Of a stretch of DNA of 64,000 nt, positions 18,661-63,804 are shown in pieces; the first letter of the stretch is position 1, and the number at the start of each line of letters is the position of its first letter. The notes below the pieces were generated by a model, which was not told where the DNA came from, did no database searches, and was given only the letters and a program-made list of their open reading frames with translations. The stretch comes from Candidatus Pacearchaeota archaeon (GTDB taxonomy: Archaea > Nanobdellota > Nanobdellia > Pacearchaeales > GW2011-AR1). Location: contig JAOAJC010000001.1 in the NCBI GenBank assembly GCA_026414385.1, positions 2,384-66,383 of the forward strand. The letters are read 5' to 3'. Made by a program: the position numbers and the translations under genes.

Positions 18661-19407
18661 TTATTCCTCTTGTTCTATTCTTGGGGCTAAAACAAAAGAT
18701 AAAAGAACATCGCCTGTTGAGAAGTTTATCCTCATCGGGTGATTGTCAGAGAAATTTATTGCTACTCTTGAAGATATTTTTGCCCCTTTTATGAATTTGT
18801 TTAGATATTCAAGAGAAAATCTTGCCATGCTGTTATCTGAATGAATTTCAACTTCGTCTGATGAGAATTCTATTTTTGCAGAGTTTAAACCCTTTGCTTC
18901 AATTACGAAAGAGGTTGGATTTGCCATAAATGTGCAAGCATCCGACACAATTGAACAATCCTCAATTGCTTCTACAAAAGACATTGAGTCCATTTTTATT
19001 ACAGATTTAAATTCCCATTGAGGCATCTCTTTTTCTTCACCCTCTATGTCTATCAATGCCAGATTGAATTCTCTTCTTATTTTGTCTTGGATACCTAATT
19101 TTAGAAGATTATCTTCACGAGATATTGTTAGAGAAGAACCTTGCAAACATCTTCGCAAGACGTTTTTTAAGTTTTCAAGATTAATGCCAAGAGTTTCGTC
19201 TTTTTCGACTTCAAATTGAGAAAAAAGAGAAGAAGGCATCTTAAAATAAACCATTGCTACATTAGCAGGATCTATTGCAGTTATGCTCATTCCGTCTTTT
19301 TTTATTTTTAACCTAACTTCTGTAACTAATTCTGAAATTATTGAAATAATGTCTGATAATAATCTTGGACTATCTAATTTTAATAACATAATTTTGGATA
19401 ACAACAA
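18661..19407 (-). CDS. pcna: DNA polymerase sliding clamp PCNA
   Basis: 248 aa. N-terminal MLLSKIM...VTEVRLKIKKDGMSITAIDPANVAMV and two-domain layout are typical PCNA. Confidence 0.85.
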   Translation of the reverse strand: MLLSKIMLLKLDSPRLLSDIISIISELVTEVRLKIKKDGMSITAIDPANVAMVYFKMPSSLFSQFEVEKDETLGINLENLKNVLRRCLQGSSLTISREDNLLKLGIQDKIRREFNLALIDIEGEEKEMPQWEFKSVIKMDSMSFVEAIEDCSIVSDACTFMANPTSFVIEAKGLNSAKIEFSSDEVEIHSDNSMARFSLEYLNKFIKGAKISSRVAINFSDNHPMRINFSTGDVLLSFVLAPRIEQEE

Positions 19408-19476
19408 CGACTTTTAAGGTTTGTTGTGATAAAATAGAATAGATAGATTATAAAAGAGAATTATTGTTAATAAAAG

Positions 19477-19490
19477 TGTGAATTTTCACA
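19477..19490. promoter_or_regulatory. Inverted repeat TGTGAA-tt-TTCACA in the divergent pcna/priS promoter region
   Basis: Perfect 6-bp arms with a 2-nt spacer in the 170-nt intergenic region between two divergent replication genes. Confidence 0.3.
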
Positions 19491-19576
19491 ACAAAAATAT
19501 CTAAATTAGAACAGAGTGAAATTTATTATTCTCAAAAAACAATAATTATTATAAGACGGCTAATTAATAAAATGAA

Positions 19577-21112
19577 ATGGGAAAAGAAGAGAGAATAAAG
19601 GCGATAACGCAATTGTATTATTCAAATCCAAAGGTTCTTGAAGCAATGATGATGTTTTCGATTGATAGGGAAGTTATTCCAAGATATTTTGAAATTTTTG
19701 GGAAAAGGCCTGACAAGATTCAATACCCTTCTGACATTCTTGGAATGGTGAAAAAAGGAGCAACCTCTTTTCATGTATCAGAAGAGTTGTGGAATGATGT
19801 TATGGCTTTAAGTTCTGATTTGAAAACGGAAGAGTTAAATGAGTTGAGAAAAGGATGGGATTTATTAATTGATGTAGATTCGCCTTTTCTTGATTTGTCA
19901 AAAATTGCAACAAAGTTATTATTAAATGCTTTAAAAGAACACGGAATTAAAAATTATGGATTAAAATTTTCTGGAAACAAAGGATTCCATATTATTGTTT
20001 CTAACAAGGCTTTTCCAAAAATTTATGATGGGAAGGAAACGAGAAAAATGTTTCCTGACTGGGCAAGAGCTATCTGTGAATATTTAACAAACTACATAAG
20101 AAAGGATTATTATTTGGAGGCAGGCAAAATATTAACAAACAGCGAAATAGAAAAAAACACTGGATTAAAGGAAGAGCCAAACATTATATGTAAAAAGTGT
20201 GGGAAAAAAGCGCGTGTTGGAGATTTGATTAATTTTAAATGTCCGGTGTGTAACATGGAAATATCAAGAAAAGATGTTAAGATAACAAAGAGAAAATTAA
20301 GATGTTTAAACGAAAAATGTGCAGGTTTTTTTGAAATCATAAATGAAAAAAAATATTATTATTGCGAGTATTGTAAAGAGAGGGATAATGAAAAAATGAA
20401 ATTAAATTCTGAAAAAAATCCTGAAAATTTTGAAGAATTAAGAGGAGTTAATGTTGAGAAGATTGCCAAATTAGATTTAGTGCTTGTTTCTCCAAGACAT
20501 TTATTTAGAATGCCATATTCTTTACATGAAAAGACGGCGCTTGCGAGCATTACAATAAAAGAGGAAGATATTGATAAGTTTATGCCGAGAGATGCAAATC
20601 CGTTAAGTGTGAAAATAATAGAGTTTATGCCAAACAATGAAGAAAATGAAGCAAAATATCTTTTGAGCAATGCAATAGAGTGGAAAAAAACGCAAGAAGA
20701 GACAAATGAAAATAGTTGGAAAAAAATTGATGAAAATGAATTTAGAGAGGTTGATTTTAGAAAAATAAAAGAAGAAATGTTTCCAGAATCTATAAAAAAA
20801 TTATTAAGAGGACTAAAAGACGGGAGAAAACGAGGGTTATTTGTATTAATTACTTTTTTGAGGGCGTTGAATTTTCCTGCAGATTATATAAATAAAAGAA
20901 TAAGAGAATGGAATAAATTGAATGACCCACCATTAAAAGAAGGGTATATTAAAGCACAAATTGATTGGCATCTAAAACAAAAGAAGAAAATATTACCACC
21001 CAATTATTCAAATGATGCATTTTATAAAGACATAGGATTAATTAATGAGATTCCTAAATTAAAAAACCCTCTTTCTGAGATTGCAAGAAAATTAAAGGAG
21101 AATAAAAAATAA
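19577..21112 (+). CDS. priS: DNA primase small (catalytic) subunit PriS with tandem Zn-ribbons and a C-terminal PriCT/PriL-CTD-like helical domain (possible fused primase)
   Basis: AEP catalytic motifs (DLLIDVDSPF, KFSGNKGFHIIV), eight Cys in two CxxC...CxxC ribbons, and a C-terminus GRKRGLFVLITFLRALNFPADYINKRIREWNKLNDPPLKEGYI matching the PriCT-1-type pattern. Confidence 0.75.
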   Translation: MGKEERIKAITQLYYSNPKVLEAMMMFSIDREVIPRYFEIFGKRPDKIQYPSDILGMVKKGATSFHVSEELWNDVMALSSDLKTEELNELRKGWDLLIDVDSPFLDLSKIATKLLLNALKEHGIKNYGLKFSGNKGFHIIVSNKAFPKIYDGKETRKMFPDWARAICEYLTNYIRKDYYLEAGKILTNSEIEKNTGLKEEPNIICKKCGKKARVGDLINFKCPVCNMEISRKDVKITKRKLRCLNEKCAGFFEIINEKKYYYCEYCKERDNEKMKLNSEKNPENFEELRGVNVEKIAKLDLVLVSPRHLFRMPYSLHEKTALASITIKEEDIDKFMPRDANPLSVKIIEFMPNNEENEAKYLLSNAIEWKKTQEETNENSWKKIDENEFREVDFRKIKEEMFPESIKKLLRGLKDGRKRGLFVLITFLRALNFPADYINKRIREWNKLNDPPLKEGYIKAQIDWHLKQKKKILPPNYSNDAFYKDIGLINEIPKLKNPLSEIARKLKENKK

Positions 21113-45833: not shown

Positions 45834-47903
45834 TCAAAAAGACAGAATTCGGCCAACATCGACTTTTGAGATATCATTTTCTTTTTTAAGTCTAATAACA
45901 TTATCAACGAATCCTTCTATTTTTTGTTCGTGACTTACAATGATTAATTGGGTAAGTTTTAATTCTTCAAAAACGTCACGCATTTTTTCTAATTGCGCCT
46001 CTGAGAAACCATCTGTCGGTTCATCAAGTATGACGATGTCTTTTGTTTTAATATTGCTAAGAATGGAATTTATTGTTTGATTAAGTGCTAACCTATATGC
46101 TAACGCAACTGCTGTTCTTTCCCCGCCGGAAAGAAAAGAATATTCCATTTCATTTTCACCCTGGATTATGAGTGGCGTAAAATTCTCGTCTAATTGCACT
46201 TCAAAAGAATCTTGTGGCATAAGCATATGAAACCATTTTCCAAATAATTTTGAGAATTCCAACCTTAGTTTTATCAAAATATTTCTTTCAGTAAAATCAA
46301 TTAAGTTTATAAATTGAGAGGAGAGCCAATCTGTCAATTCTAAAAGTGCGAGAAGCTTCTTCTTTGACTCCTCTTTCTTTTTTATTTCTTCCGCCAGTGA
46401 AGAGATTTGTTTTTTTGTCAATTCAATCTCTTTTTTTAACTCTGCTAGCGAAATTTCCGAAATTTTTTCGATATTAAATGCATTCTTTAATTCGTCTTGT
46501 TTAGATTTTAGAAGATTTATGAATTTTGACAATTTAGAAGCTTCTTGTTTAAGATTTTCTATATGGTTAGATAATAAAATAATATCCTTCTCTAAAGTTT
46601 CTGTTAACTTTTTTATTTCTTCCATTCTTGTAATTGATCTTTGAATAATTATCATTTTTGTTTTTAAATTCTCGAGGTTTAACTTTTCTTCTTCGAGATT
46701 TGATAGAGTGTCTTTTTCTTTTTCCAACAAAAGTTTTATATTGGATTGTTCGTCTCTTAAAGAGTTTAATTTTTTTGTTATTGAAGATATCTCTTGTTCG
46801 GTTTTATTCAGAATATTATGTTTGTGAGTTTCTGAAACATCTTGAAGACAAGTCGGACAAAATTTCAGATTGAGGATCCTCTCTTTTTCAGAAACAAAAG
46901 AAAGCTTATTTGAGTTTAATGAATTAATTGTTGTTGATATCTCAATTAATTTTGAATTTAGTTTTTCAACTTCGCTTTTCTTAGAAAGAATTTCGTTTTT
47001 TATATTTATTAATTTTTGTTCGTCAAAATTTTCTTTTGCTTCTACAACATTTTTATTTAAATTATTAAATTCTTTTTGTAATGACAGAAGATGTTCTCTT
47101 TTTGAACTTATCATAATTTTTGTTTTCTCTATTTCTTTTTCTAACATTTCTTTTTCTTTTATTTTTTTCTCCAATTCAAAAACTTCTGTCTCTATATTTT
47201 TTCTTTTTTCTTTGTTTAGAGAAACCTCTTTTTCTTTATCAATAATTTTTTGTTCCATTGAAATTAGTGATTCGTTTATTGATTTTAGTCTTTCTTTATC
47301 AGAATCAAGAGTTTTTATTTCGCCTTGAAGAAGTTTTGCTTCTTCTTTCATTTTATTCAAAAAAATAGTTAAGTTATCTCGTATTTTTTTATATTTATCT
47401 ATGCCAAAAGTATGCCTCAAAACATTTAACCTTGTTTCCGCATCTTCTGTAATAATTTGCTTCATCTGTTCTTGCGGAGTATAAACTGTAAATCTATAAA
47501 GAATGTTGTTCTTTTTTATAAATTCTGATGGGTAGTGTAAAATAGACAAAACTTTTGATTTTAATTCTGTAACTGACAATTCTTCTTTCTGTCCGTTGAT
47601 AGTAATTGCTGAATAATCATTAATTACGGAATTTCCTTCTCTTTTTAATCTTCTCTCGATTATAATGTCATTATTATCTATATTAAATTCCAATAAAACT
47701 TCTCCGAAATTTGAATTATTTCTTAAAAGAAAAGAACCTTTTTGTCCAGGTTGTAATCCAAAAAGAGCATATTCTAATGCGAACAATATTGAAGATTTTC
47801 CAGAACCTATATCTCCGGAAAGAAGAGTAGAACCTGTTGGAAATTCTATCTCTTGATTTTCGTAACTCCTTATATTAATTAGTTTAATTCTTTTTATTAT
47901 CAT
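45834..47903 (-). CDS. rad50: Rad50 ATPase (short coiled-coil version with CxxC zinc hook)
   Basis: Walker A GDIGSGKSS, zinc hook CPTCLQ, signature LSGGERTAVALAYRLAL, and Walker B VILDEPTDG. 689 aa. Confidence 0.85.
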   Translation of the reverse strand: MIIKRIKLINIRSYENQEIEFPTGSTLLSGDIGSGKSSILFALEYALFGLQPGQKGSFLLRNNSNFGEVLLEFNIDNNDIIIERRLKREGNSVINDYSAITINGQKEELSVTELKSKVLSILHYPSEFIKKNNILYRFTVYTPQEQMKQIITEDAETRLNVLRHTFGIDKYKKIRDNLTIFLNKMKEEAKLLQGEIKTLDSDKERLKSINESLISMEQKIIDKEKEVSLNKEKRKNIETEVFELEKKIKEKEMLEKEIEKTKIMISSKREHLLSLQKEFNNLNKNVVEAKENFDEQKLINIKNEILSKKSEVEKLNSKLIEISTTINSLNSNKLSFVSEKERILNLKFCPTCLQDVSETHKHNILNKTEQEISSITKKLNSLRDEQSNIKLLLEKEKDTLSNLEEEKLNLENLKTKMIIIQRSITRMEEIKKLTETLEKDIILLSNHIENLKQEASKLSKFINLLKSKQDELKNAFNIEKISEISLAELKKEIELTKKQISSLAEEIKKKEESKKKLLALLELTDWLSSQFINLIDFTERNILIKLRLEFSKLFGKWFHMLMPQDSFEVQLDENFTPLIIQGENEMEYSFLSGGERTAVALAYRLALNQTINSILSNIKTKDIVILDEPTDGFSEAQLEKMRDVFEELKLTQLIIVSHEQKIEGFVDNVIRLKKENDISKVDVGRILSF

Positions 47904-49042
47904 AGTCCGATTATTTTTTTGATTTCTGAGATTAATCTTTCTTCAAATATCAAAGATTTTTCATCATCAAGCTTTTCCATTTGTAAAGTTTTTAATAATG
48001 TTGGAATGAGAAAGTTGTATTTATTTGGGTTTTTTTCCTCAAATTTCTTAATTATTGCTAACTCCATATTAGAAGAATCTGTTATATCTATCTTAATTTC
48101 TGGTTCTGGCAAATGCAATTTTGAGGTGGATTTTAGAAAAGAGTATGCTTGTTGTTTTTTTACATAATCCTCTATTTTTTGGAAATCTATATCAGTACTT
48201 TTCCCTTTTTCAAGAACACCATATAGTTTTAGAATTACAATTTTGTTTTTAAGATTCTCTTTCTCTAAATTTTTTATTATCTCTTCTGTTGCGGTTAGTG
48301 CGTTTTTGATTTCAATGTTAAAAGTTATTACATCGTGTAATTTTATCTCTTCTCTCTTAATCTGCCAAAAATTTACAATACAAAAAGAACCTGCGCCGAG
48401 TTCTTCTAATTCTGAGATGTTGTTCGGAAAGATTGGACCAGAATAAACGAATTTTCCTTTTTGATATTTAATATGGAGGTGGGAGAGAGCAACGTAATCT
48501 ACTTTTGGAAGAGCATCTTGATTAACTGCTTCAATTGGCAGAGAAGAAACAGCATCCTTAATCGAAGTATGCAAGAGGAGAATTTTAAATAAAGGAGAAT
48601 CTTGTAATGAAATTCTTGAGAGTTCTTCAACCTCTAAAGAAGATTTTTTTCCAGGGTAACCGTAAATTGCGATGTTTTTATAGATCGTTGGTTCTAAAAC
48701 TATTTTATTATTTTTTTCTTCAAAAACAGCTACATTTTTGCAAAAACCTGCTTTTTCTAAAACATCAAGAAAAGTTTTGCCAGATACAGAATAATCATGA
48801 CTTCCTGCTATAAGAAAAACAGGTATATTTGCTTCTTTTAGTTTTTTAAATTCGTGAAAAGTATCTTTTAAAATATCTATTGGAGGGTATGCAGAATCAA
48901 ATAAGTCGCCAGATATGAGGATAAAATCCACTTTTTCACGAATGCACTTGTCTATTGCGTATTGAAAACTTTTAAGATTTAGTTCTTTTAATTCTGGTTG
49001 TCTCCATGAACCTAAATGACAATCACCCAAATGTGCAAATTT
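47900..49042 (-). CDS. mre11: Mre11 nuclease
   Basis: MKFAHLGDCHLG...ILISGDLFD are the phosphoesterase motifs. Overlaps the rad50 start. Confidence 0.85.
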   Translation of the reverse strand, partial: KFAHLGDCHLGSWRQPELKELNLKSFQYAIDKCIREKVDFILISGDLFDSAYPPIDILKDTFHEFKKLKEANIPVFLIAGSHDYSVSGKTFLDVLEKAGFCKNVAVFEEKNNKIVLEPTIYKNIAIYGYPGKKSSLEVEELSRISLQDSPLFKILLLHTSIKDAVSSLPIEAVNQDALPKVDYVALSHLHIKYQKGKFVYSGPIFPNNISELEELGAGSFCIVNFWQIKREEIKLHDVITFNIEIKNALTATEEIIKNLEKENLKNKIVILKLYGVLEKGKSTDIDFQKIEDYVKKQQAYSFLKSTSKLHLPEPEIKIDITDSSNMELAIIKKFEEKNPNKYNFLIPTLLKTLQMEKLDDEKSLIFEERLISEIKKIIGL

Positions 49043-49087
49043 CATAAAAACCAAAGCAAAACAAAATTATTTATAGATTATTGTAAT

Positions 49088-50574: not shown

Positions 50575-50845
50575 GGTGTAGGCAGGGAGTTTGCTCAAAA
50601 AACCCATTGCAGAACCCTCTTGCCTTTCTCAGTTTTGCAACCCTGAAAGCATCTTGTTTCCTGATTAGGGCTGCTCCGATCAAGGCCTGACCCGATTCAC
50701 AGGAGCAAGATCGAACAGGACAAAACATCAACGTCCGGCAAAAGACTGCAAAGAGTCTTTCTCACTCGCTCCTTTAAGCTTGCCATGAAGCCCGCTTGCA
50801 TGACGGCGCAGGGCTAGCGCGCCAGCTTGCCTACATCATAAAGAA
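50575..50845 (-). ncRNA. ffs: Probable signal recognition particle RNA (7S/SRP RNA)
   Basis: A ~270-nt GC-rich island in an AT-rich genome with no ORF. The minus-strand reading contains GGUCAGG-CC-uugauc-GG-AGCAGCC (forward coordinates 50668..50693). This is the conserved SRP RNA helix-8 pattern (GGUCAGG...AGCAGCC flanking a short stem-loop). Confidence 0.5.
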
Positions 50846-53176: not shown

Positions 53177-53320
53177 TTTTCCTCTTTTGATTTAGAATTT
53201 TATATCTTATGATATATAAATATTTTGATGGTAAAAAAATTTATGTTAGTTATCTTTGATTCACTCTTGTCTTAAAGCTTCTCGCTTACGCTGCGAGCTT
53301 TAATCCTGCGGTGAACAAAG

Positions 53321-53394
53321 AGCCTCTGAGGAGATTTGAACTCCCGACCCCGAGTTTACGAAACTCGTGCTCTAACCAGCTGAGCTACAGAGGC
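53321..53394 (-). tRNA. tRNA-Thr (anticodon CGU)
   Basis: Minus strand reads GCCUCUG UAGCUCAGCUGGUUAGAGCA CGAGU UUCGUAA ACUCG GGGUC GGGAGUUCAAAUCUCCU CAGAGGC U. It has a 7-bp acceptor stem, D-arm, CGU anticodon, T-arm GGGAG/UUCAAAU/CUCCU. No encoded CCA. Confidence 0.85.
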
Positions 53395-58679: not shown

Positions 58680-58835
58680 TTTTACCTCCTTTTTAATTTA
58701 GTTTGTGATTTTATTAAAAATTATAGGAATTTGGAGTTTATAAGCTTTTCTTTTTTTATTTTTGGTTAAATTTAATGGCCGGGTGCGTTCGGCGCTTCGC
58801 GCCTCACATATTATTGAGGTTGTATTTTTTTAATT

Positions 58836-58925
58836 ATTCCACTTTTTTGGAATTTTGATAAGATTTTTTTTAAAATTCCATTATTTATGTGTAATAATTA
58901 ATATGGAATTTTTTAAAAATTCCAT
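58836..58925. promoter_or_regulatory. Cluster of TGGAAT/ATTCCA dyad elements (three inverted-repeat sites, one a perfect 23-nt palindrome)
   Basis: ATTCCA-cttttt-TGGAAT (58836..58853). TGGAATTTT-N15-AAAATTCCA (58848..58880). ATGGAATTTTT-T-AAAAATTCCAT (58903..58925, perfect). Confidence 0.4.
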
Positions 58926-59038
58926 ATGCAATAAAGGGGTGCTAAAAGTTGTTGTTTTTTATTAAAAATTTAAGCAAAAATTGTTAAAATATTGGCATTT
59001 TTTGTAAAAATTTTATATTTTTTAAGTGTTTTTTGGTG

Positions 59039-59056
59039 TTTAAACAGCTGTTTAAA
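59039..59056. promoter_or_regulatory. 18-bp perfect palindrome TTTAAACAGCTGTTTAAA flanked by TGGTGTTTAAA direct repeats
   Basis: Direct repeats at 59034..59044 and 59068..59078. Lies in a 510-nt intergenic region upstream of the wHTH gene at 59194. Confidence 0.4.
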
Positions 59057-59193
59057 ATTTAAATAATGGTGTTTAAAGTTTATTTTTTGGGTTTTTGCTT
59101 GTTTGTTTTTTGTTTGTTGTGTAACTTTTAAGTTGTGGTTTTTAAGGCTTAAAAAAACGAAATATTTATAAATTAGAGTTTTTTGAATATATT

Positions 59194-59859
59194 ATGTTTG
59201 ATTGGATATTTGGAAAGAGGTGGAAGAGGGTTGAGGAAGAAACAAAAAAAGGATTTAATGCAGTGAGAGAAGATATTGAAGCAATAGGAAAGTGGATAAA
59301 ACATCTTGATGGGGAAGATAAACAGCTGTTTATGATTATTTCTGAATTAAAAAATGAAATAAACGCGTTAAAAAGCGAATTATTAGAGTTAAAGAATGGA
59401 TTAGAGGTTGCTGAAGAAAGTCAAAAAATTGTGCCAAAATTTAAAAAATTGCCAGTTGTTGGTAAACAAACAGGTGTTGAGGTTGTTCAAAAAGTTGTTC
59501 AAACACCTGTTCAAACAGGCAATTTTTATGATATTTTTAAAAGTTTGAGTGCTAATGAGAGATTAATTGTTTTTACATTAATGAATAGTGAGCTAAAATT
59601 AAGTTATGAGGATTTGGCTTTGCTGTTAGGGAAAGAGAGAGCAACTATAAGAGGGCAGATAAATGCAATAAAACAGAAAAGTGAGGGTTTAATTGAGGAG
59701 ATAATTGAAAAAAATGGGAAAAAAAGAGTGTTTATTCCAGATGAAATAAAGGTAAAATTAGCAAAATATGCAAAAGTGAGAGTTAAGAGTGAGAAAAAAA
59801 TGTTAGAAAATGAGAATTTCAGTGAAAAAAGTGAAGGAGAGCAAAAAAATGAGAGTTAG
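59194..59859 (+). CDS. Coiled-coil plus C-terminal winged-helix (MarR-like) protein
   Basis: N-terminal heptad-rich region (ELKNEINALKSELLELKNGLE), Q/V/T-rich linker, and wHTH ERLIVFTLMNSELKLSYEDLALLLGKERATIRGQINAIKQKSEGLIEEI. Confidence 0.5.
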   Translation: MFDWIFGKRWKRVEEETKKGFNAVREDIEAIGKWIKHLDGEDKQLFMIISELKNEINALKSELLELKNGLEVAEESQKIVPKFKKLPVVGKQTGVEVVQKVVQTPVQTGNFYDIFKSLSANERLIVFTLMNSELKLSYEDLALLLGKERATIRGQINAIKQKSEGLIEEIIEKNGKKRVFIPDEIKVKLAKYAKVRVKSEKKMLENENFSEKSEGEQKNES

Positions 59860-60012
59860 AAATCTATATTAATTTGGCCTGTAAATTTTGGAGGTGAGAG
59901 TAAAAATTAAAACGAACCTAAAAAACAACGAGAATGGGGGAAGAAAAAAAAGAAACAACAAAAGATTAAAAGTTGTTGGAAAAAAACAAGAGTTTATCGG
60001 TTAAACGAAAAT

Positions 60013-60642
60013 TTATAACTCTCTGAGAGATAAAATAGTTTGTAAAGAGGCGATTTTTTTAAGTTCGGGGGAGATTGAGAGAACAATTTTTTTGTTGTTG
60101 TGTTTGGTTTTTATGACAGGAATCCCTTTTTTAATAAGTTTTAAGACATAATCTCTTATTGAACTTTCAGTTAAGGAGAGTTTTTTTGAGATAAGAGAGT
60201 AATCGACTATAAAACCCTCTTCTTCGAGTTGATAGATTGTTGAGAAAACTAACATTTCTTGATTTGTTAGGTGCTTAAAAGTAGAACGAATGTCTTTTTT
60301 TATAGAGTCAAGAGAGTTTAGGATCTGTGAAAGATGTTCTATTTTTGATATTTTATCAATGTGTTGGATTGTCTGTCTGTTTGTCTGTCTGTCTGTTGGA
60401 ACCCCATTATTTCCTGTGGAAACTTCATTATAATTGGTTATTGGGCTGTATAAATGAGATTTATTTGTTGGATTTGATAAAATAGTGGTATTTTGCGGTA
60501 GGGATTTATTTATTTGTTGGTTGTCTGTTGGTTTGTCTGTTTGTTGGATTGAGTTTAAAGTTCGTTTAATTTCATTTATTTGTTCTTTTATTTCTTGAAT
60601 CTCTATTTTTACTTTTGCAAATGCTTCTTTTATAGGATCCAT
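60013..60642 (-). CDS. Paralogous coiled-coil plus C-terminal winged-helix protein with a Q/T/N-rich linker
   Basis: MDPIKEAFAKVKIEIQEIKEQINEIKRTL. Linker PTDRQTNRQT / QTDKPTDNQQ encoded by (TGTC/TGTT)n repeats. wHTH NQEMLVFSTIYQLEEEGFIVDYSLISKKLSLTESSIRDYVLKLIKKG. Confidence 0.5.
   Translation of the reverse strand: MDPIKEAFAKVKIEIQEIKEQINEIKRTLNSIQQTDKPTDNQQINKSLPQNTTILSNPTNKSHLYSPITNYNEVSTGNNGVPTDRQTNRQTIQHIDKISKIEHLSQILNSLDSIKKDIRSTFKHLTNQEMLVFSTIYQLEEEGFIVDYSLISKKLSLTESSIRDYVLKLIKKGIPVIKTKHNNKKIVLSISPELKKIASLQTILSLREL
60371..60396. repeat. Tetranucleotide (GTCT/GTTT)n microsatellite inside the coding region (second copy 60515..60550)
   Basis: gtctgtctgtttgtctgtctgtctgtt, and further on ttgtctgttggtttgtctgtttgttgg. 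Confidence 0.6.
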
Positions 60643-60704
60643 AAATAAATTAGATTAAAAAGAATTAATAAGTATTGTTGTGAATTAGAATAATTAAAAA
60701 TGAA

Positions 60705-61028
60705 TTAGGGGGAATCTCTGAAGAGATTTGGGAGAGAGGAGTTTGTATTTGAGAGATTTTGTTGGTGTTTTTTATATACTTCATAAGTTTTATTAGAGAG
60801 GCGCCAGCGCTGCCTTTTTATATAATTGTTACCCTTTGGGTTCTTATTTATTTCAACAACAAGAGATTTAGATTTTAATTCAAGAAGTAAAGATTTTGTA
60901 AATTCTTCATCTCGGGCAATTTCTCGGCTGATATCTGAAGTGAATTTGGATTCTGGGGATATGGAAAAAAGATAGTGAAGGATTTGTTCTGCTATTTTAT
61001 CTTTTTTTTCTTTTGATAGTTTTGGCAT
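60705..61028 (-). CDS. Small putative DNA-binding (wHTH-like) protein
   Basis: Start refined to MPKLSKEKKDKIAEQILHYLFSISPE...SREIARDEEFTKSLLLELKSKSLV, resembling a MarR/PadR-type HTH. Confidence 0.35.
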   Translation of the reverse strand: MPKLSKEKKDKIAEQILHYLFSISPESKFTSDISREIARDEEFTKSLLLELKSKSLVVEINKNPKGNNYIKRQRWRLSNKTYEVYKKHQQNLSNTNSSLPNLFRDSP

Positions 61029-61206
61029 GATAACAAAAACTAAATAAATTATATAAATATTTAGTATTTTTGAATTAAAAGAAAAAAATAACAAAAAAGT
61101 AGAGTAAAAATAGATAATAAAATTTATAAATTTATAGAAAGAGTTTTATTTGGCCTGTATGCTCTCTGTTTTGTAGTTGGAATAATAAAATTTAGATTAG
61201 GTAAAA

Positions 61207-63804
61207 ATGAGTTTTATAAAATACATAGAAAAGAACAAAGCTGAAGAGATAGAAAATATATTAAATCCAATTGTTAGAGAGTGGTTTTTTTCGAAGTTTA
61301 AAGAGTTTTCATTGACACAACTTTATGGGGTAAAAAACATAAATGATAGAAAAAACATTCTTGTGTGCGCACCTACAGGAGGGACAAAAACATTAACTGC
61401 TTTTTTACCAATTATTAATTATTTAGTGGAATTGGCTTTAAAAAAAGAGTTGGAAAATAAGGTTTATGCTGTTTATTGTTCGCCATTAAAAGCGTTGACA
61501 AATGATATTTATATAAATTTAATAAAGCCGCTTGAAGAGATTGGAGAGATAGCAAAGAAAAAAGGAAAAGAAATGCAGGAAATAAGAGTGGGTTTAAGGA
61601 CCGGAGATAGTGAACAAAAAGAGAGACAGAAAATGACAAAAAAAAGTCCCCATATTCTTGTTACTACGCCTGAAAGTTTTGCTATAGTTATGACATCAAA
61701 AAAATTTATTGAGAATTTAAGAGGGGTAGAATATGTTATTGTTGATGAGATACACGCACTAACTAATAAAAGAGGAGTTTATTTGTCTTTAACTTTGGAG
61801 AGATTGAGTGATATAAGCATAATCGAGCCTGTAAGAATTGGATTAAGCGCGACTATTGCACCGCTTGAGGAAATTGCTCGTTTTTTAGTTGGGGTTGGTA
61901 GAGAGTGCCTTATTGCAGATGTAAAATTAATGAAAAAAGTTGAGATTGGATTAAATTTTCCAGGGGGGAACATAATTGAAGCTGAGAGCATAGAAAATCA
62001 GAGGGAACTTTATTATATTCTTGATGAGTTAATATGGAAGCATAAGACTACATTAATATTTACCAATACAAGAGCTGCAACAGAAAGAATTATTCATTAT
62101 CTTGATTTGCATTTTCCTGGGAAATATGTAGGATTAATAGGTGCGCATCATTCTTCAATGAGCAAAGAAAAAAGATTTGAGATTGAAGAGAAACTAAGAA
62201 AAGGGGAGTTAAAGGTAGTGGTAAGTTCAACTTCTTTAGAATTGGGAATTGATATAGGAAGTATTGATTTAGTAATTATGTTGAGAAGTCCAAAGAGCGT
62301 TTCAAGAGCGTTACAAAGAATAGGAAGGGCGGGACATAAGTTACACGAAAACCCGAAAGGAGAGTTTTTAGTGTTGGATAGAGATGATTTAATTGAGTGC
62401 GGGGTAATGAGAAAAGGAATGATAGAGGGGAAGATTGATTTAGCAGAAATTCCAAAAAATTGTTTGGATGTTTTGAGTCAACAAATTTATGGTATGGCTA
62501 TAACAAGAGTGTGGAATGTTGATGAGTTATTAAAACTCATAAGGAGAAGTTATTGCTATGAGAATTTGACAAAAGAGGACTTTTATTCTGTTATTAGTTA
62601 TCTTGCAGGAGATTATGCATTAGAACACAGAAATGTTTATGCAAAAATTTGGTATGATGCTGAAAAAAAGCTTATAGGAAAAAGAGGAAAGATGGCAAGA
62701 GTAATTTATTTGACAAATTTAGGAACGATTCCAGGAGAGGAAAGTGCGAGTGTCATAATCGGTACAGGAGAGAGAAAAGGAAGCGTTGTAGGGAAGATTG
62801 ACGAATCATTTTTGGAGAAAATGAAAAGAGGAGATGTTTTTGTTTTGGGAGGGAATAAATATCAGTTTTTATATGCGAGGGGGTTAAAAGCGTTTGTTTC
62901 TGCAGATGTTTCAAAAAATCCTACTATTCCTTCTTGGTTTTCTGAGATATTACCTTTGAATTTTGAGTTAGCGAAAGAGATAGGAAGGTTTAGAAAATTG
63001 GTGAAGGAGAGGTTGCAAGAGAAAGAGAGGTGTATTGAGTGGATAATGAGTTATTTATATTGCAAGAGAGAGATTGCAAATGAGATTTATGATTATTTTT
63101 GGCAACAAGATAAATTTTCTGAGATCCCTGATGAAAAAACATTAGTTGTGGAGAAATATAAGGAAAATAAAGAGTATTTAATGTTTCATAGTTTGTATGG
63201 TAGAAGAGTAAATGATGTATTAGCAAGAGCTTATGCCTATGCTGCTGCAAGATTAAAGCATAGAGATGTAGAAATAGGTGTTGGCGATAATGGGTTTTAT
63301 ATTGCTGGTGAAAGTTTGGATGAAAATAAAATAATAAATTGGGTAAAATCAAAAGATTTGGAAAAAATAGTAAAAGAAGCTATTGAAAAGACAGAAATTT
63401 TAAGAAGAAGATTTAGGCATTGTGCTGCAAGAGCTTTAATGATATTGAGAAATTATAAAGGGAGGGAGAAAAGTGTTGGAAAACAGCAAGTGCATAGTGA
63501 GTTTTTGTTTGTTGCTGTAAAAAAATTAAGTGATGATTTTCCAATATTAAGGGAGGCAAGAAGAGAGGTAATAGAGGATTTAATGGACATAAAAAATGCA
63601 AAAAAAGTATTAGAATGGATTGAGAGAGGTGAAATAAAGATAAAAATAAAAAAATTACCTTTGGTTTCGCCGTTTGGTTTAAATTTGAGTTTGCAGGGAA
63701 AGAGTGATTTAATTAAAATGGAAGATAGAGTGAGTTTTTTAAAAAGAATGTATGAGATACATATGAGAACAATAAATAATAAAGAGGAATTTAAAATTAT
63801 ATAA
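61207..63804 (+). CDS. lhr: Lhr-like ATP-dependent helicase (superfamily 2, COG1201-type with C-terminal DEAD/H-associated domain)
   Basis: Motif I CAPTGGTKT, motif II VIVDEIH, motif III SAT, motif VI QRIGRAGH. A ~350-aa C-terminal extension typical of Lhr-core proteins. Confidence 0.75.
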   Translation: MSFIKYIEKNKAEEIENILNPIVREWFFSKFKEFSLTQLYGVKNINDRKNILVCAPTGGTKTLTAFLPIINYLVELALKKELENKVYAVYCSPLKALTNDIYINLIKPLEEIGEIAKKKGKEMQEIRVGLRTGDSEQKERQKMTKKSPHILVTTPESFAIVMTSKKFIENLRGVEYVIVDEIHALTNKRGVYLSLTLERLSDISIIEPVRIGLSATIAPLEEIARFLVGVGRECLIADVKLMKKVEIGLNFPGGNIIEAESIENQRELYYILDELIWKHKTTLIFTNTRAATERIIHYLDLHFPGKYVGLIGAHHSSMSKEKRFEIEEKLRKGELKVVVSSTSLELGIDIGSIDLVIMLRSPKSVSRALQRIGRAGHKLHENPKGEFLVLDRDDLIECGVMRKGMIEGKIDLAEIPKNCLDVLSQQIYGMAITRVWNVDELLKLIRRSYCYENLTKEDFYSVISYLAGDYALEHRNVYAKIWYDAEKKLIGKRGKMARVIYLTNLGTIPGEESASVIIGTGERKGSVVGKIDESFLEKMKRGDVFVLGGNKYQFLYARGLKAFVSADVSKNPTIPSWFSEILPLNFELAKEIGRFRKLVKERLQEKERCIEWIMSYLYCKREIANEIYDYFWQQDKFSEIPDEKTLVVEKYKENKEYLMFHSLYGRRVNDVLARAYAYAAARLKHRDVEIGVGDNGFYIAGESLDENKIINWVKSKDLEKIVKEAIEKTEILRRRFRHCAARALMILRNYKGREKSVGKQQVHSEFLFVAVKKLSDDFPILREARREVIEDLMDIKNAKKVLEWIERGEIKIKIKKLPLVSPFGLNLSLQGKSDLIKMEDRVSFLKRMYEIHMRTINNKEEFKII

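Follow-up and report, generated by a model that had tools for sequence, protein, structure and literature searches.

Origin recognition boxes (ORBs) inside a protein-coding sequence have been described in Pyrococcus and Thermococcus, where the dp1 gene for the small subunit of PolD carries a cluster of ORBs and mini-ORBs near cdc6/oriC (PMC1904270). This cluster is conserved throughout the order and is bound by Cdc6/Orc1 both in vivo and in vitro, and it has been suggested to act in looping or as an auxiliary element (PMC1904270). The predicted origin of Archaeoglobus profundus has two inverted ORBs 1,264 bp apart, with the two hypothetical genes Arcpr_1541 and Arcpr_1542 between them, and is located far from cdc6. 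Another kind of precedent is the tetranucleotide contingency locus, as in lgtC with (GACA)n and lic1 with (CAAT)n of Haemophilus influenzae. To our knowledge, the replication origins of DPANN archaea are essentially uncharted. No literature linking DPANN to origin recognition boxes was found, and the search for Pacearchaeota together with replication origins returned only unrelated work on G-quadruplexes.

We analysed a stretch of 64,000 nucleotides (the window) from a Candidatus Pacearchaeota archaeon. It contains three genes, here called C, B and A, which form a conserved gene cluster near a predicted replication origin. Gene B has an ORB-type box and a tetranucleotide repeat next to each other in its coding sequence.

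Genes of the C-B-A cluster

The genes and their parts are as follows.

59194..59859, plus strand: gene A (N3D20_00405), 221 aa, convergent to gene B; N-terminal helices at residues 2-78, KQT/VQT repeat block at residues 91-108 (nt 59464..59517), HTH at residues ~111-190
60013..60642, minus strand: gene B (N3D20_00410), 209 aa
60541..60636, minus strand: N-terminal helix of gene B, residues 3-34
Residues 33-82 of gene B: linker, predicted to be disordered
60016..60384, minus strand: MarR-like helix and winged helix-turn-helix (wHTH) of gene B, residues 87-209
60705..61028, minus strand: gene C, 107 aa from the ATG at 61028, a small conserved protein directly upstream of B
61207..63804, plus strand: Lhr-type helicase, divergent from gene C, with the Pfam domains DEAD, Helicase_C, WH_Lhr and DEAD_assoc

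An earlier note on this DNA had described A and B as convergent paralogues of one layout, with an Lhr-like helicase beyond a third gene. The convergence is real, and the helicase was recognised by its Pfam domains. Homologues of gene B numbered 2481 at E<=0.01. A search of genome contigs placed gene-B relatives at 456 places, and the best 80 loci, each from another species' genome, were examined. Gene A was present and convergent to B in 77 of these best 80 loci, and gene C lay directly upstream of B in 79.

Both proteins do show the common layout: a helix at the N terminus, a middle part rich in Q and T, and a MarR-like domain at the C terminus. In its AlphaFold model, B has a helix at residues 3-34, a region of low confidence at 33-82 and then, at 87-209 and with high confidence, a further helix and the wHTH; pLDDT is mostly above 90 across residues 110-209. 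When this model was compared with the PDB by Foldseek, the top matches (YusO, MepR, ST1710 and MarR) all belonged to the MarR family, with probability 1.0 and E about 3e-4. The MarR-like wHTH fold that the note had claimed for the C-terminal region was thereby borne out for B at the level of structure prediction. The model of A starts with two long helices, followed by an HTH of moderate confidence whose wing was not confidently modelled. B is thus predicted to carry a MarR-like wHTH with flanking helices that could mediate dimerisation, and the same is suggested for A by its moderate-pLDDT model and its hhalign match to B.

Sequence searches were less informative. None of the Pfam or NCBIfam MarR models matched A, B or C above threshold, and only sub-threshold HTH or coiled-coil matches were seen; a PDB sequence search with the three proteins gave no significant match. 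The N-terminal helices matched coiled-coil families and GCN4 or ZapB chains compositionally, in all cases weakly, and an N-terminal coiled coil in A and B is plausible from the predicted helices. The claimed paralogy held for one domain only. BLASTP between the whole proteins was not significant (E 0.68), whereas profile-profile comparison by hhalign gave homology of the C-terminal domains with 88.9% probability, rising to 95.8% (E 8e-9) with 77 versus 81 sequences. These profile results support A and B as distant paralogues in the C-terminal wHTH domain alone. Gene C was also considered as a relative of A or B and was rejected, since hhalign detected no homology to either; against Pfam it gave only a weak EarA-like match below threshold. 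A and B are DPANN-specific proteins that combine an N-terminal helix with a MarR-like winged helix.

An ORB-type box in the linker of gene B

Two adjoining elements occupy the middle of gene B.

60401..60422, minus strand: ORB-type box TTTCCACAGGAAATAATGGGGT, encoding (V)-S-T-G-N-N-G-V
60361..60399, minus strand: (RACA)n tract CCAACAGACAGACAGACAAACAGACAGACAATCCAACAC, encoding PTDRQTNRQTIQH, directly 3' of the box

The box has the form TTTCCA-NN-GGAAAT-NNN-GGGGT on the minus strand, and the (RACA)n tract is directly next to it. By its sequence it conforms to the ORB consensus, in which a TTCCA-NN-GGAAA(C/T) dyad is followed 3-4 nt on by a GGGGT G-string. Only one of its 22 positions differs from the published A. 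profundus ORB TTTCCACAGGAAATAAAGGGGT (21/22 identical). The Methanomassiliicoccales ORBs have the same spacing and can be aligned with it gap-free, and it is near the pan-archaeal consensus. When the 64-kb window was scanned with a position weight matrix trained on the gene-B sites, the box was the only strong match (37.8 bits). Its position in the model of the B protein has a pLDDT below 50. As the box is single, lies in a transcribed coding sequence and does not adjoin an AT-rich unwinding element, it is unlikely to be the initiation site itself.

The box is strongly conserved among orthologues. Of its 17 specified positions, all were matched in 46 of 81 species, 16 in 29 species and 15 in the other 6. 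The changes were confined to positions that also vary in known ORBs, and the central NN and the 3-nt spacer varied freely, again as in known ORBs. Third-codon-position identity in gene B was 0.91 in this block, whereas the wHTH domain reached 0.53 and the N-terminal helix 0.57. Far from being a loose spacer, this part of the linker contains a canonical ORB, and the box and tract region is the most nucleotide-conserved part of gene B. Codon choice across species was nearly fixed in the box (TCC 99%, background 7%; GGG 96%, background 24%) and fixed in the tract (GAC 100%, background 23%; ACA 100%, background 44%), the per-codon binomial P values for such choices being calculated with phylogenetic relatedness ignored.

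Duplicated boxes were also observed. Some species carry an in-frame duplicate, and two loci (L040 and L077) have a second full ORB 43 nt upstream. The latter copy is read in a different frame and specifies LPQEMRGSK or LPQEIKGLK in place of STGNxGV. A second copy in a different frame indicates that the DNA is conserved and not the peptide. Judged from these alignments, the box DNA is under nucleotide-level purifying selection in 81 species or more; the peptide S-x-G-N-x-G-V is a consequence of the DNA element. An ORB should be conserved as DNA independently of coding, and the gene-B box, on this comparative evidence, is.

The related genomes place the cluster close to a predicted origin. An orc1/cdc6 gene (Pfam Cdc6_lid, Cdc6_C) was found 1.5-3 kb from C-B-A in 21 of the best 80 of the 456 loci. 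Most of the orc1-PRC intergenic regions contain ORB(-) and ORB(-) about 98 bp apart, an AT-rich stretch and then ORB(+). These boxes are of the gene-B motif type and match 13-15 of the 17 positions; the gene-B ORB is nearer to the consensus and better conserved than the origin's own boxes, and its polarity is that of the right-hand origin ORB. Elsewhere in the 80 loci the motif was concentrated at such orc1-adjacent origins. Neither orc1/cdc6 (Pfam on the 30 larger ORFs; tblastn with Pacearchaeota Orc1) nor the main ORB array was present in the 64-kb window. In the sister locus L081 the gene order is PRC, p152, Metallophos, Lhr, C, B, A, and in this clade Lhr and Metallophos separate C-B-A from the PRC-barrel/p140 genes bordering the predicted main origin. 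By extrapolation from L081, orc1/cdc6 and the main origin would be located just past the right end of the window. The distance from the gene-B ORB to the main origin ranges by clade from about 1.4 kb up to roughly 5 kb or beyond, which argues against a strictly distance-dependent architectural role. GC skew was discarded as an origin indicator, as it merely tracks the coding strand.

Two further features of this type were found upstream of gene A.

58919..58941, plus strand: second, weak ORB-like site ATTCCATATGCAATAAAGGGGTG, 252 bp upstream of gene A, in the orientation opposite to that of the gene-B ORB
58836..58927, no strand assigned: intergenic TTCCA/TGGAA dyad cluster upstream of A, with ATTCCAC-N5-TGGAAT and ATATGGAA-N11-TTCCATAT, the dyad motifs of the earlier note

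The weak site had the second-best matrix score in the window (11.5 bits) and is kept in L081. An ORB at this position was present in only 5 of 72 loci, so the site is lineage-specific, and a conserved second ORB upstream of gene A was rejected as a general feature. It faces the gene-B box, whereas the boxes on either side of the AT-rich stretch in the canonical Pacearchaeota origin have the opposite arrangement. The dyad cluster has five half-sites in 88 bp versus 4.4 per kb window-wide, and these dyads have the ORB core half-site in common. Two candidates within gene A were discarded: the ORB-like sequence at 59733..59755 (with TCCAGATGAAAT at 59736..59747) was treated as a chance match, being unconserved in the codon table of orthologues, and the DNA of the AVQT repeat misfits the ORB spacing.

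Taken together, the data make it probable that the gene-B ORB is an auxiliary Orc1/Cdc6 site placed in a disordered linker, the DNA of which would be used twice.

Repeat tracts and alternative explanations

The earlier note had described two tetranucleotide tracts in the linker, slippage in which would vary its length or frame. The first tract is indeed a period-4 array according to TRF (unit TGTC, 6.8 copies, 91% match, 60370..60396, one interruption). The second is instead a degenerate 12-nt repeat.

60515..60550, minus strand: first Q/T-rich tract of the protein (QQTDKPTDNQQ), a degenerate 12-nt repeat with CCAACA units

TRF reported a period-12 array here at 60515..60545 and another of this period in gene A at 59484..59517. 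CCAACA recurs across orthologues in reading frames 0, 2 and 1. At 60382..60396 gene B has a perfect tetranucleotide run of only 15 nt (3.75 units). No other such run in the window reaches 14 nt, but the average number in composition-preserving shuffles is 0.44, which puts the tract alone within the reach of chance; its significance comes from conservation across species. The ORB model does not account for how little the (RACA)n tract varies beyond the box.

If the locus were a contingency locus, slipped-strand mispairing in the (GACA)n or CCAACA repeats would switch gene B or rapidly vary its linker length in populations. A genuine tetranucleotide array does lie in the coding sequence, and a change of 1 or 2 units would end the protein early, at 92-103 aa and ahead of the wHTH domain. 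Across the 81 species, perfect (ACAG)n runs measure between 0 and 41 nt. Protein length also differs among species (208-306 aa, with differing linkers), and linker length varies within 90%-identity clusters; the short members of these clusters look like fragments from short contigs. However, the runs are always in frame: none of the 81 orthologues is frameshifted, all are full-length, and no out-of-frame (OFF) allele was found. Throughout the family only 1-3 units follow the box, a number that did not change inside the 90% clusters examined. All indels seen within clusters are confined to the other tract, behind the N-terminal helix, and among them are 33-nt changes, which are not multiples of 4. 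The perfect run is much shorter than classical contingency tracts, and it belongs to the most conserved DNA of the gene. We thus consider such a locus quite improbable. Length variation of the linker stands, and nothing in these comparisons points to an ON/OFF switch in the (GACA)n tract.

The remaining alternatives accept the conservation and assign it to something other than an Orc1/Cdc6 site. An operator bound by A, B or C for autoregulation would suit a strictly conserved cluster that encodes three putative DNA-binding proteins around the site, the palindromic TTCC-N3-GGAA core (palindromes being targets of MarR-type dimers) and the clustering of TTCCA/TGGAA dyads upstream of gene A as well. 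The motif is nevertheless the pan-archaeal ORB including the asymmetric GGGGT typical of Orc1 sites, it recurs in the inverted arrays around the AT-rich stretch beside orc1/cdc6 in related genomes, and a palindrome of 11 bp is short for a MarR dimer, which leaves an operator unlikely. That S-x-G-N-x-G-V-P-T-D-R-Q-T is a functional short linear motif, with a coincidental likeness to an ORB, appears very unlikely. Its residues are invariant in the protein alignment and a comparable xQT repeat occupies the matching relative position in paralogue A, but the synonymous positions are nearly fixed even for rare codons, the variable codons fall on variable ORB positions, the off-frame copy encodes another peptide, and the motif sits in a predicted disordered region. 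Least likely of all is an element acting in RNA, be it a recoding signal, a structure in the mRNA or the target of an sRNA. Nucleotide-level conservation within a coding sequence is typical of RNA elements too, and frameshifting could conceivably make use of a tetranucleotide repeat, since all three of its frames yield one and the same peptide. Against this, no Rfam match overlapped the box at E<=10, and a permissive scan of 58800..61300 and a gathering-threshold scan of the whole window returned nothing relevant. The only match nearby, to rteR (60419..60475, opposite strand), was sub-threshold, at 24 bits versus a gathering cutoff of 72. The fold of the box region was no better than that of shuffles (z = +1.19), the other frames have no long alternative ORF downstream, and the block exactly matches a known DNA element.

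Proposed role and comparison with known systems

If the gene-B box is an auxiliary Orc1/Cdc6 site, the middle of gene B would serve both as protein code and as a DNA signal. Orc1/Cdc6 would bind this box as it would the more degenerate origin boxes of the same type. The box is near the consensus, would probably be of high affinity and may act as an auxiliary initiator site on the origin arm of the same polarity. Its downstream role could be origin organisation, titration of Orc1, or an intragenic block to transcription; with such a block, expression of gene B would follow Orc1 occupancy. The (GACA)n tract, which encodes DRQT units, has probably lengthened and shortened during evolution by slippage, 12 nt at a step and hence in frame. 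It is possible, though we regard it as rather doubtful, that the arrangement goes further. Either the box is part of an Orc1/Cdc6-gated dual-coding device, where the bound initiator would gate an origin-proximal winged-helix protein acting on the origin or on chromosome segregation, or C-B-A with its inverted ORB pair constitutes a second origin of the Archaeoglobus type. If one of these were true, the locus would be the first sequence-defined replication-origin system of Pacearchaeota and a clear case of a replication signal dictating a conserved peptide.

For the auxiliary site itself, the locus offers a sequence-level handle, namely a canonical oriC prediction beside orc1/cdc6 in related genomes together with a satellite ORB. 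It raises the question whether archaeal initiators use distal high-affinity sites, as with bacterial datA/DARS and the Pyrococcus dp1 cluster, whether neighbouring genes are regulated through initiator binding, and how an 'invariant' peptide motif comes to be imposed on a disordered linker by a DNA signal. It also calls for caution in annotation, as an invariant motif in a low-complexity linker can stem from an overlapping DNA element and not from protein function.

Among known proteins, MarR-family regulators resemble B in residues 87-209, which form a long helix, an HTH, a beta-hairpin wing and a C-terminal helix; gene B adds to these an N-terminal helix and a long disordered linker. The contingency loci of H. 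influenzae share with gene B a GACA-type repeat in the coding sequence, where non-triplet slippage would shift the frame. In contrast to them, the gene-B tract is short and interrupted, shows no OFF alleles in 81 species and is flanked by DNA that is extremely conserved at the nucleotide level. The Sulfolobus ucm/UBP system was considered as an analogue, and the accessible part of its literature contained nothing that ties it to the C-B-A locus.

The closest resemblance is to archaeal ORBs and mini-ORBs, including the 22-nt ORBs of A. profundus and A. fulgidus, those of Methanomassiliicoccales and ORB1-3 of Sulfolobus oriC1, with which the gene-B box shares the TTCCA-NN-GGAAA(Y) dyad, the 3-nt spacer and the GGGGT. 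Unlike them, it lies within a coding sequence in one copy (occasionally two), is separated from the main array by between 1.4 kb and more than 5 kb, does not adjoin an unwinding element, and is joined to a (RACA)n tract. The window also resembles the A. profundus origin in having an inverted pair, the gene-B box at 60401..60422 (-) and the weak site at 58919..58941 (+), about 1.5 kb apart, which spans gene A and most of gene B, with orc1 not adjacent. It differs in that the second site is weak (11.5 bits) and occurs in 5 of 72 related loci only. As in the dp1 cluster, the ORB of gene B is found inside a coding sequence; here the host gene and the lineage are different, and one near-consensus predicted box appears to dictate a conserved peptide within the disordered linker.

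Gene cluster and protein architecture

The genes concerned, in a window derived from a Candidatus Pacearchaeota MAG, are:
59194..59859, plus strand: gene A, 221 aa, 100% identity to N3D20_00405
60013..60642, minus strand: gene B, 209 aa, 100% identity to N3D20_00410
60705..61028, minus strand: gene C, small, directly upstream of B
61207..63804, plus strand: Lhr-type helicase, divergent from C

Genes A and B are convergent. About 2,500 homologues were found for each protein, all in DPANN genomes (labelled Pacearchaeota or Nanoarchaeota) and metagenomes. A scan using one genome per species located relatives of B at 456 places, and the 80 best, each from a different species genome, were compared. 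Of these 80 loci, 79 have C directly upstream of B, 77 have A convergent to B and 47 have Lhr adjacent. C-B-A is a conserved gene cluster. The window also carries replication and repair genes at 18661..21112 and 45834..49054 (PCNA, a primase small-subunit-like protein, Rad50 and a Mre11-like phosphoesterase). Its sole Rfam or ARAGORN RNA genes are an SRP RNA (50578..50834, minus strand; 71 bits under the bacterial large SRP model of the SRP clan) and tRNA-Thr(CGU) (53320..53394, minus strand).

The earlier note described A and B as paralogues with an N-terminal coiled coil, a linker and a C-terminal MarR-like winged helix. Structure prediction bore out this architecture. For B, AlphaFold (mean pLDDT 73.8) predicts a helix at 3-34, low confidence over 33-82 and, with good confidence, a helix plus winged helix over 87-209; the top Foldseek matches of this model in the PDB were all MarR-family regulators (E ~3e-4, probability 1.0). 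The model of A was weaker (pLDDT 59), showing an HTH in addition to two long N-terminal helices. Judged from the models, a coiled coil in the N-terminal helices is plausible. Paralogy held for the winged-helix domain but not at the level of BLASTP, which detected no similarity between A and B: the C-terminal domains aligned in profile-profile comparison, at 88.9% probability first and at 95.8% (E 8e-9) in a comparison of 77 versus 81 sequences. The same method detected no relationship of gene C to A or B, and no curated family scored above threshold for any of the three.

The invariant block and repeat tract of gene B

The features of this region are:
60401..60422, minus strand: origin recognition box (ORB) in gene B, TTTCCACAGGAAATAATGGGGT, the first 22 nt of the block in the window
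60370..60396: period-4 array, TGTC x 6.8, 91% match (Tandem Repeats Finder)
60515..60545: period-12 array (Tandem Repeats Finder)

In the protein alignment, the tetranucleotide-encoded stretch of B is not a loose linker but an invariant motif, S-T-G-N-x-G-V-P-T-D-R-Q-T-x-x-Q-T. When 81 orthologues (proteins 43-60% identical) were back-translated, the synonymous sites of the block barely varied. TCC was used in 99% (background 7%), GGG in 96% (24%) and GTT in 100%; across block and tract, CCA reached 96% (31%), ACA 100% (44%) and GAC 100% (23%). In contrast, equally conserved residues of the winged-helix domain showed normal codon variation. Mean third-position identity in the block was 0.91, compared with 0.53 for the winged-helix domain and 0.57 for the N-terminal helix, a within-gene contrast independent of the per-codon binomial P values, which ignore shared ancestry.

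The nucleotide consensus is TTTCCA-NN-GGAAAT-NNN-GGGGTT-CCAACAGACAGACAGACA, and S-x-G-N-x-G-V is the plain translation of TCC-ANN-GGA-AAT-NNN-GGG-GTT. Selection on the peptide is contradicted by the synonymous sites and by the reading frame. Two species, L040 and L077, carry a second complete ORB 43 nt upstream (the two boxes are at gene B positions 193 and 236) in another frame, so that this copy encodes LPQEMRGSK or LPQEIKGLK; no other observation argues as strongly for selection on the DNA rather than on the peptide. In-frame duplicate boxes occur in L005, L019, L030 and others, and the ORB copy number within gene B differs between species. The box falls where the B model has pLDDT <50, and an imposed sequence should be tolerated there. 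On this comparative evidence, the box is under strict nucleotide-level selection; it sits where this origin-proximal gene for a winged-helix protein encodes its disordered linker, and a (GACA)n tract is fused to it.

By its sequence, the block is a canonical ORB, the type of site recognised by the replication initiator Orc1/Cdc6. Its first 22 nt differ at one position from the Archaeoglobus profundus ORB, TTTCCACAGGAAATAAAGGGGT (PMC3035285). They can be aligned gap-free with the ORBs of Methanomassiliicoccales, GTTCCAGTGGAAATGG-AGGGGT, and come close to the pan-archaeal consensus, CTTCCAGTGGAAACGAAAGGGGT (PMC4153887). The core TTCC...GAA, essential for Cdc6 binding in Pyrococcus (PMC1904270), is present. 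Among 81 species, 46 matched 17/17 specified ORB positions, 29 matched 16/17 and 6 matched 15/17. The central dinucleotide (CA, CT, TA, GT and others) and the 3-nt spacer vary freely, and it is precisely there that known ORBs differ from one another. We found no literature on ORBs in DPANN. An RNA element is unlikely: Rfam gave no same-strand match overlapping the box, and the folding of the region did not surpass that of shuffled sequences (z = +1.19). Recognition by the winged-helix proteins of the locus rather than Orc1 is less likely, given the asymmetric G-string of the box and the canonical ORB arrays adjoining orc1.

Straight after GGGGTT come CCAACA and then (RACA)n, read as P-T-(D/N)-(R/K/Q)-Q-T units. 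The convergent genes and repeat tract were confirmed as the earlier note had them. The perfect tetranucleotide run, the only one in the window, spans just 15 nt (60382..60396); shuffles yield 0.44 such runs on average, so it is unremarkable by itself. Across species, perfect (ACAG)n runs measure 0 to 41 nt, all in frame, CCAACA and ACAGAC units are found in all three frames, and the variant codons AAC and AAA are one step from GAC and AGA. This pattern agrees with slippage-driven microsatellite turnover held to 12-nt steps. The uniformity of (RACA)n goes beyond what the ORB model accounts for, and microsatellite homogenisation or an extended binding site is possible.

Potential phase variation, also proposed, found no support. 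Were the tract to change by 1 or 2 units, B would be truncated at 92-103 aa; none of the 81 orthologues is frameshifted, and the units after the box, 1-3 across the family, did not change in number within the 90%-identity clusters examined. The linker length does evolve, as was suggested: within-cluster differences, non-tetranucleotide indels among them, map to the Q/T tract that comes first after the N-terminal helix (at 60515..60550 in the window).

Other elements in and near gene A

Two overlapping repeat features lie in gene A:
59464..59517, residues 91-108: KQT/VQT block, 12-nt repeat, consensus GCTGTTCAAACA x 3, containing the palindrome AACAGCTGTT
59484..59517: period-12 array (Tandem Repeats Finder)

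Across 77 species, synonymous sites of the KQT/VQT block are unusually uniform (GCT 94-99%, background 38%; ACA 83-100%, background 44%), and it matched no known element. Ser57 (59362..59367) is TCG in 95% of species (background 7%), in a CG-containing palindrome that reads TTATCGTCGATAA in most species and AACGCGTT in the window; Val195 (59773..59784) is GTG in 99% (background 15%), within AAAGTGAGAGTT. These near-fixed codons suggest further nucleotide-level constraints. An ORB-like string at 59733..59755 (plus strand), ATTCCAGATGAAATAAAGGTAAA, resembles the Sulfolobus mini-ORB TTTTCAGATGAAAC; orthologues do not conserve the string, which is probably due to chance.

Upstream of gene A, an intergenic (TTTG)n / TTTGTTT array (59079..59120) is the only other period-4 array that Tandem Repeats Finder reported in the window; its minus strand is (CAAA)n-like and recalls the AACA variants that other species have in the gene-B tract. 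A GC-rich element, GCCGGGTGCGTTCGGCGCTTCGCGCCTCACATATTATTGAGG (58778..58819, plus strand), stands out from its AT-rich intergenic surroundings. Two small hairpins lie within it, GGCGC-TTC-GCGCC and CCTCA-N8-TGAGG. Many related loci (L002, L006, L012, L024, L036 and others) conserve the element, often in 2-3 copies each, with a compensatory stem variant, GGGC-TTAC-GCCC, in L081. A small structured RNA is one possibility, a repeated regulatory or terminator element another.

Replication origin context

When the whole 64-kb window was scanned with a position weight matrix built from the box, only two sites reached at least 6 bits, the gene-B box (37.8 bits) and:
58919..58941, inverted relative to the gene-B box: weak ORB-like site, 11.5 bits, 252 bp upstream of gene A

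The 64-kb window contains no orc1/cdc6. This gene lies 1.5-3 kb from gene B in 21 of the 80 related loci, and its L058 protein matches Pfam Cdc6_lid and Cdc6_C. The gene order in the orc1-linked loci is orc1 (leftward), origin, PRC-barrel (86 aa), p140 (a conserved 140-aa protein), C and B (rightward), with A convergent on B. Most orc1-PRC-barrel intergenic regions have the classical archaeal origin layout: two same-strand ORBs ~98 bp apart are followed by an AT-rich stretch and then by an ORB in inverted orientation, beyond which lie the PRC-barrel and p140 genes. These ORBs share the motif type of the gene-B box but are more degenerate (13-15/17 positions). A canonical Pacearchaeota oriC is predicted at L058 2490..2836, where the AT-rich stretch contains (ATTAT)n, and in the corresponding regions of 20 other loci. 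In the window's clade, Lhr and a Metallophos gene sit between p140 and C, as seen in the sister locus L081. Upstream of its PRC gene, L081 has two ORB-like sites with an AT-rich stretch between them, and from this layout the main origin of the window's genome is predicted to lie a short way past the window's right end.

In a rival reading, the C-B-A region itself would be an A. profundus-type second origin, with two inverted ORBs ~1.3-1.5 kb apart enclosing two small genes. The weak inverted site is in keeping with this, as is a cluster of TTCCA/TGGAA dyads just to its left (58836..58927; ATTCCAC-N5-TGGAAT and ATATGGAA-N11-TTCCATAT), with five half-sites in 88 bp versus 4.4 per kb in the window; these may be mini-ORB-like sites. 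However, the partner site is present in just 5 of 72 loci, and the two sites face each other, unlike the ORBs flanking the AT-rich stretch of a canonical origin.

As an ORB, the gene-B box would be bound by Orc1/Cdc6, and we infer a downstream role as an auxiliary or titrating site, or as an intragenic roadblock. Its polarity is that of the right-hand origin ORB, and one report describes Orc1 monomers as binding ORBs with defined polarity (PMC12141716). A precedent for an intragenic ORB is the Pyrococcus dp1 cluster, which lies inside a coding gene near cdc6 and is bound by Cdc6/Orc1 (PMC1904270).
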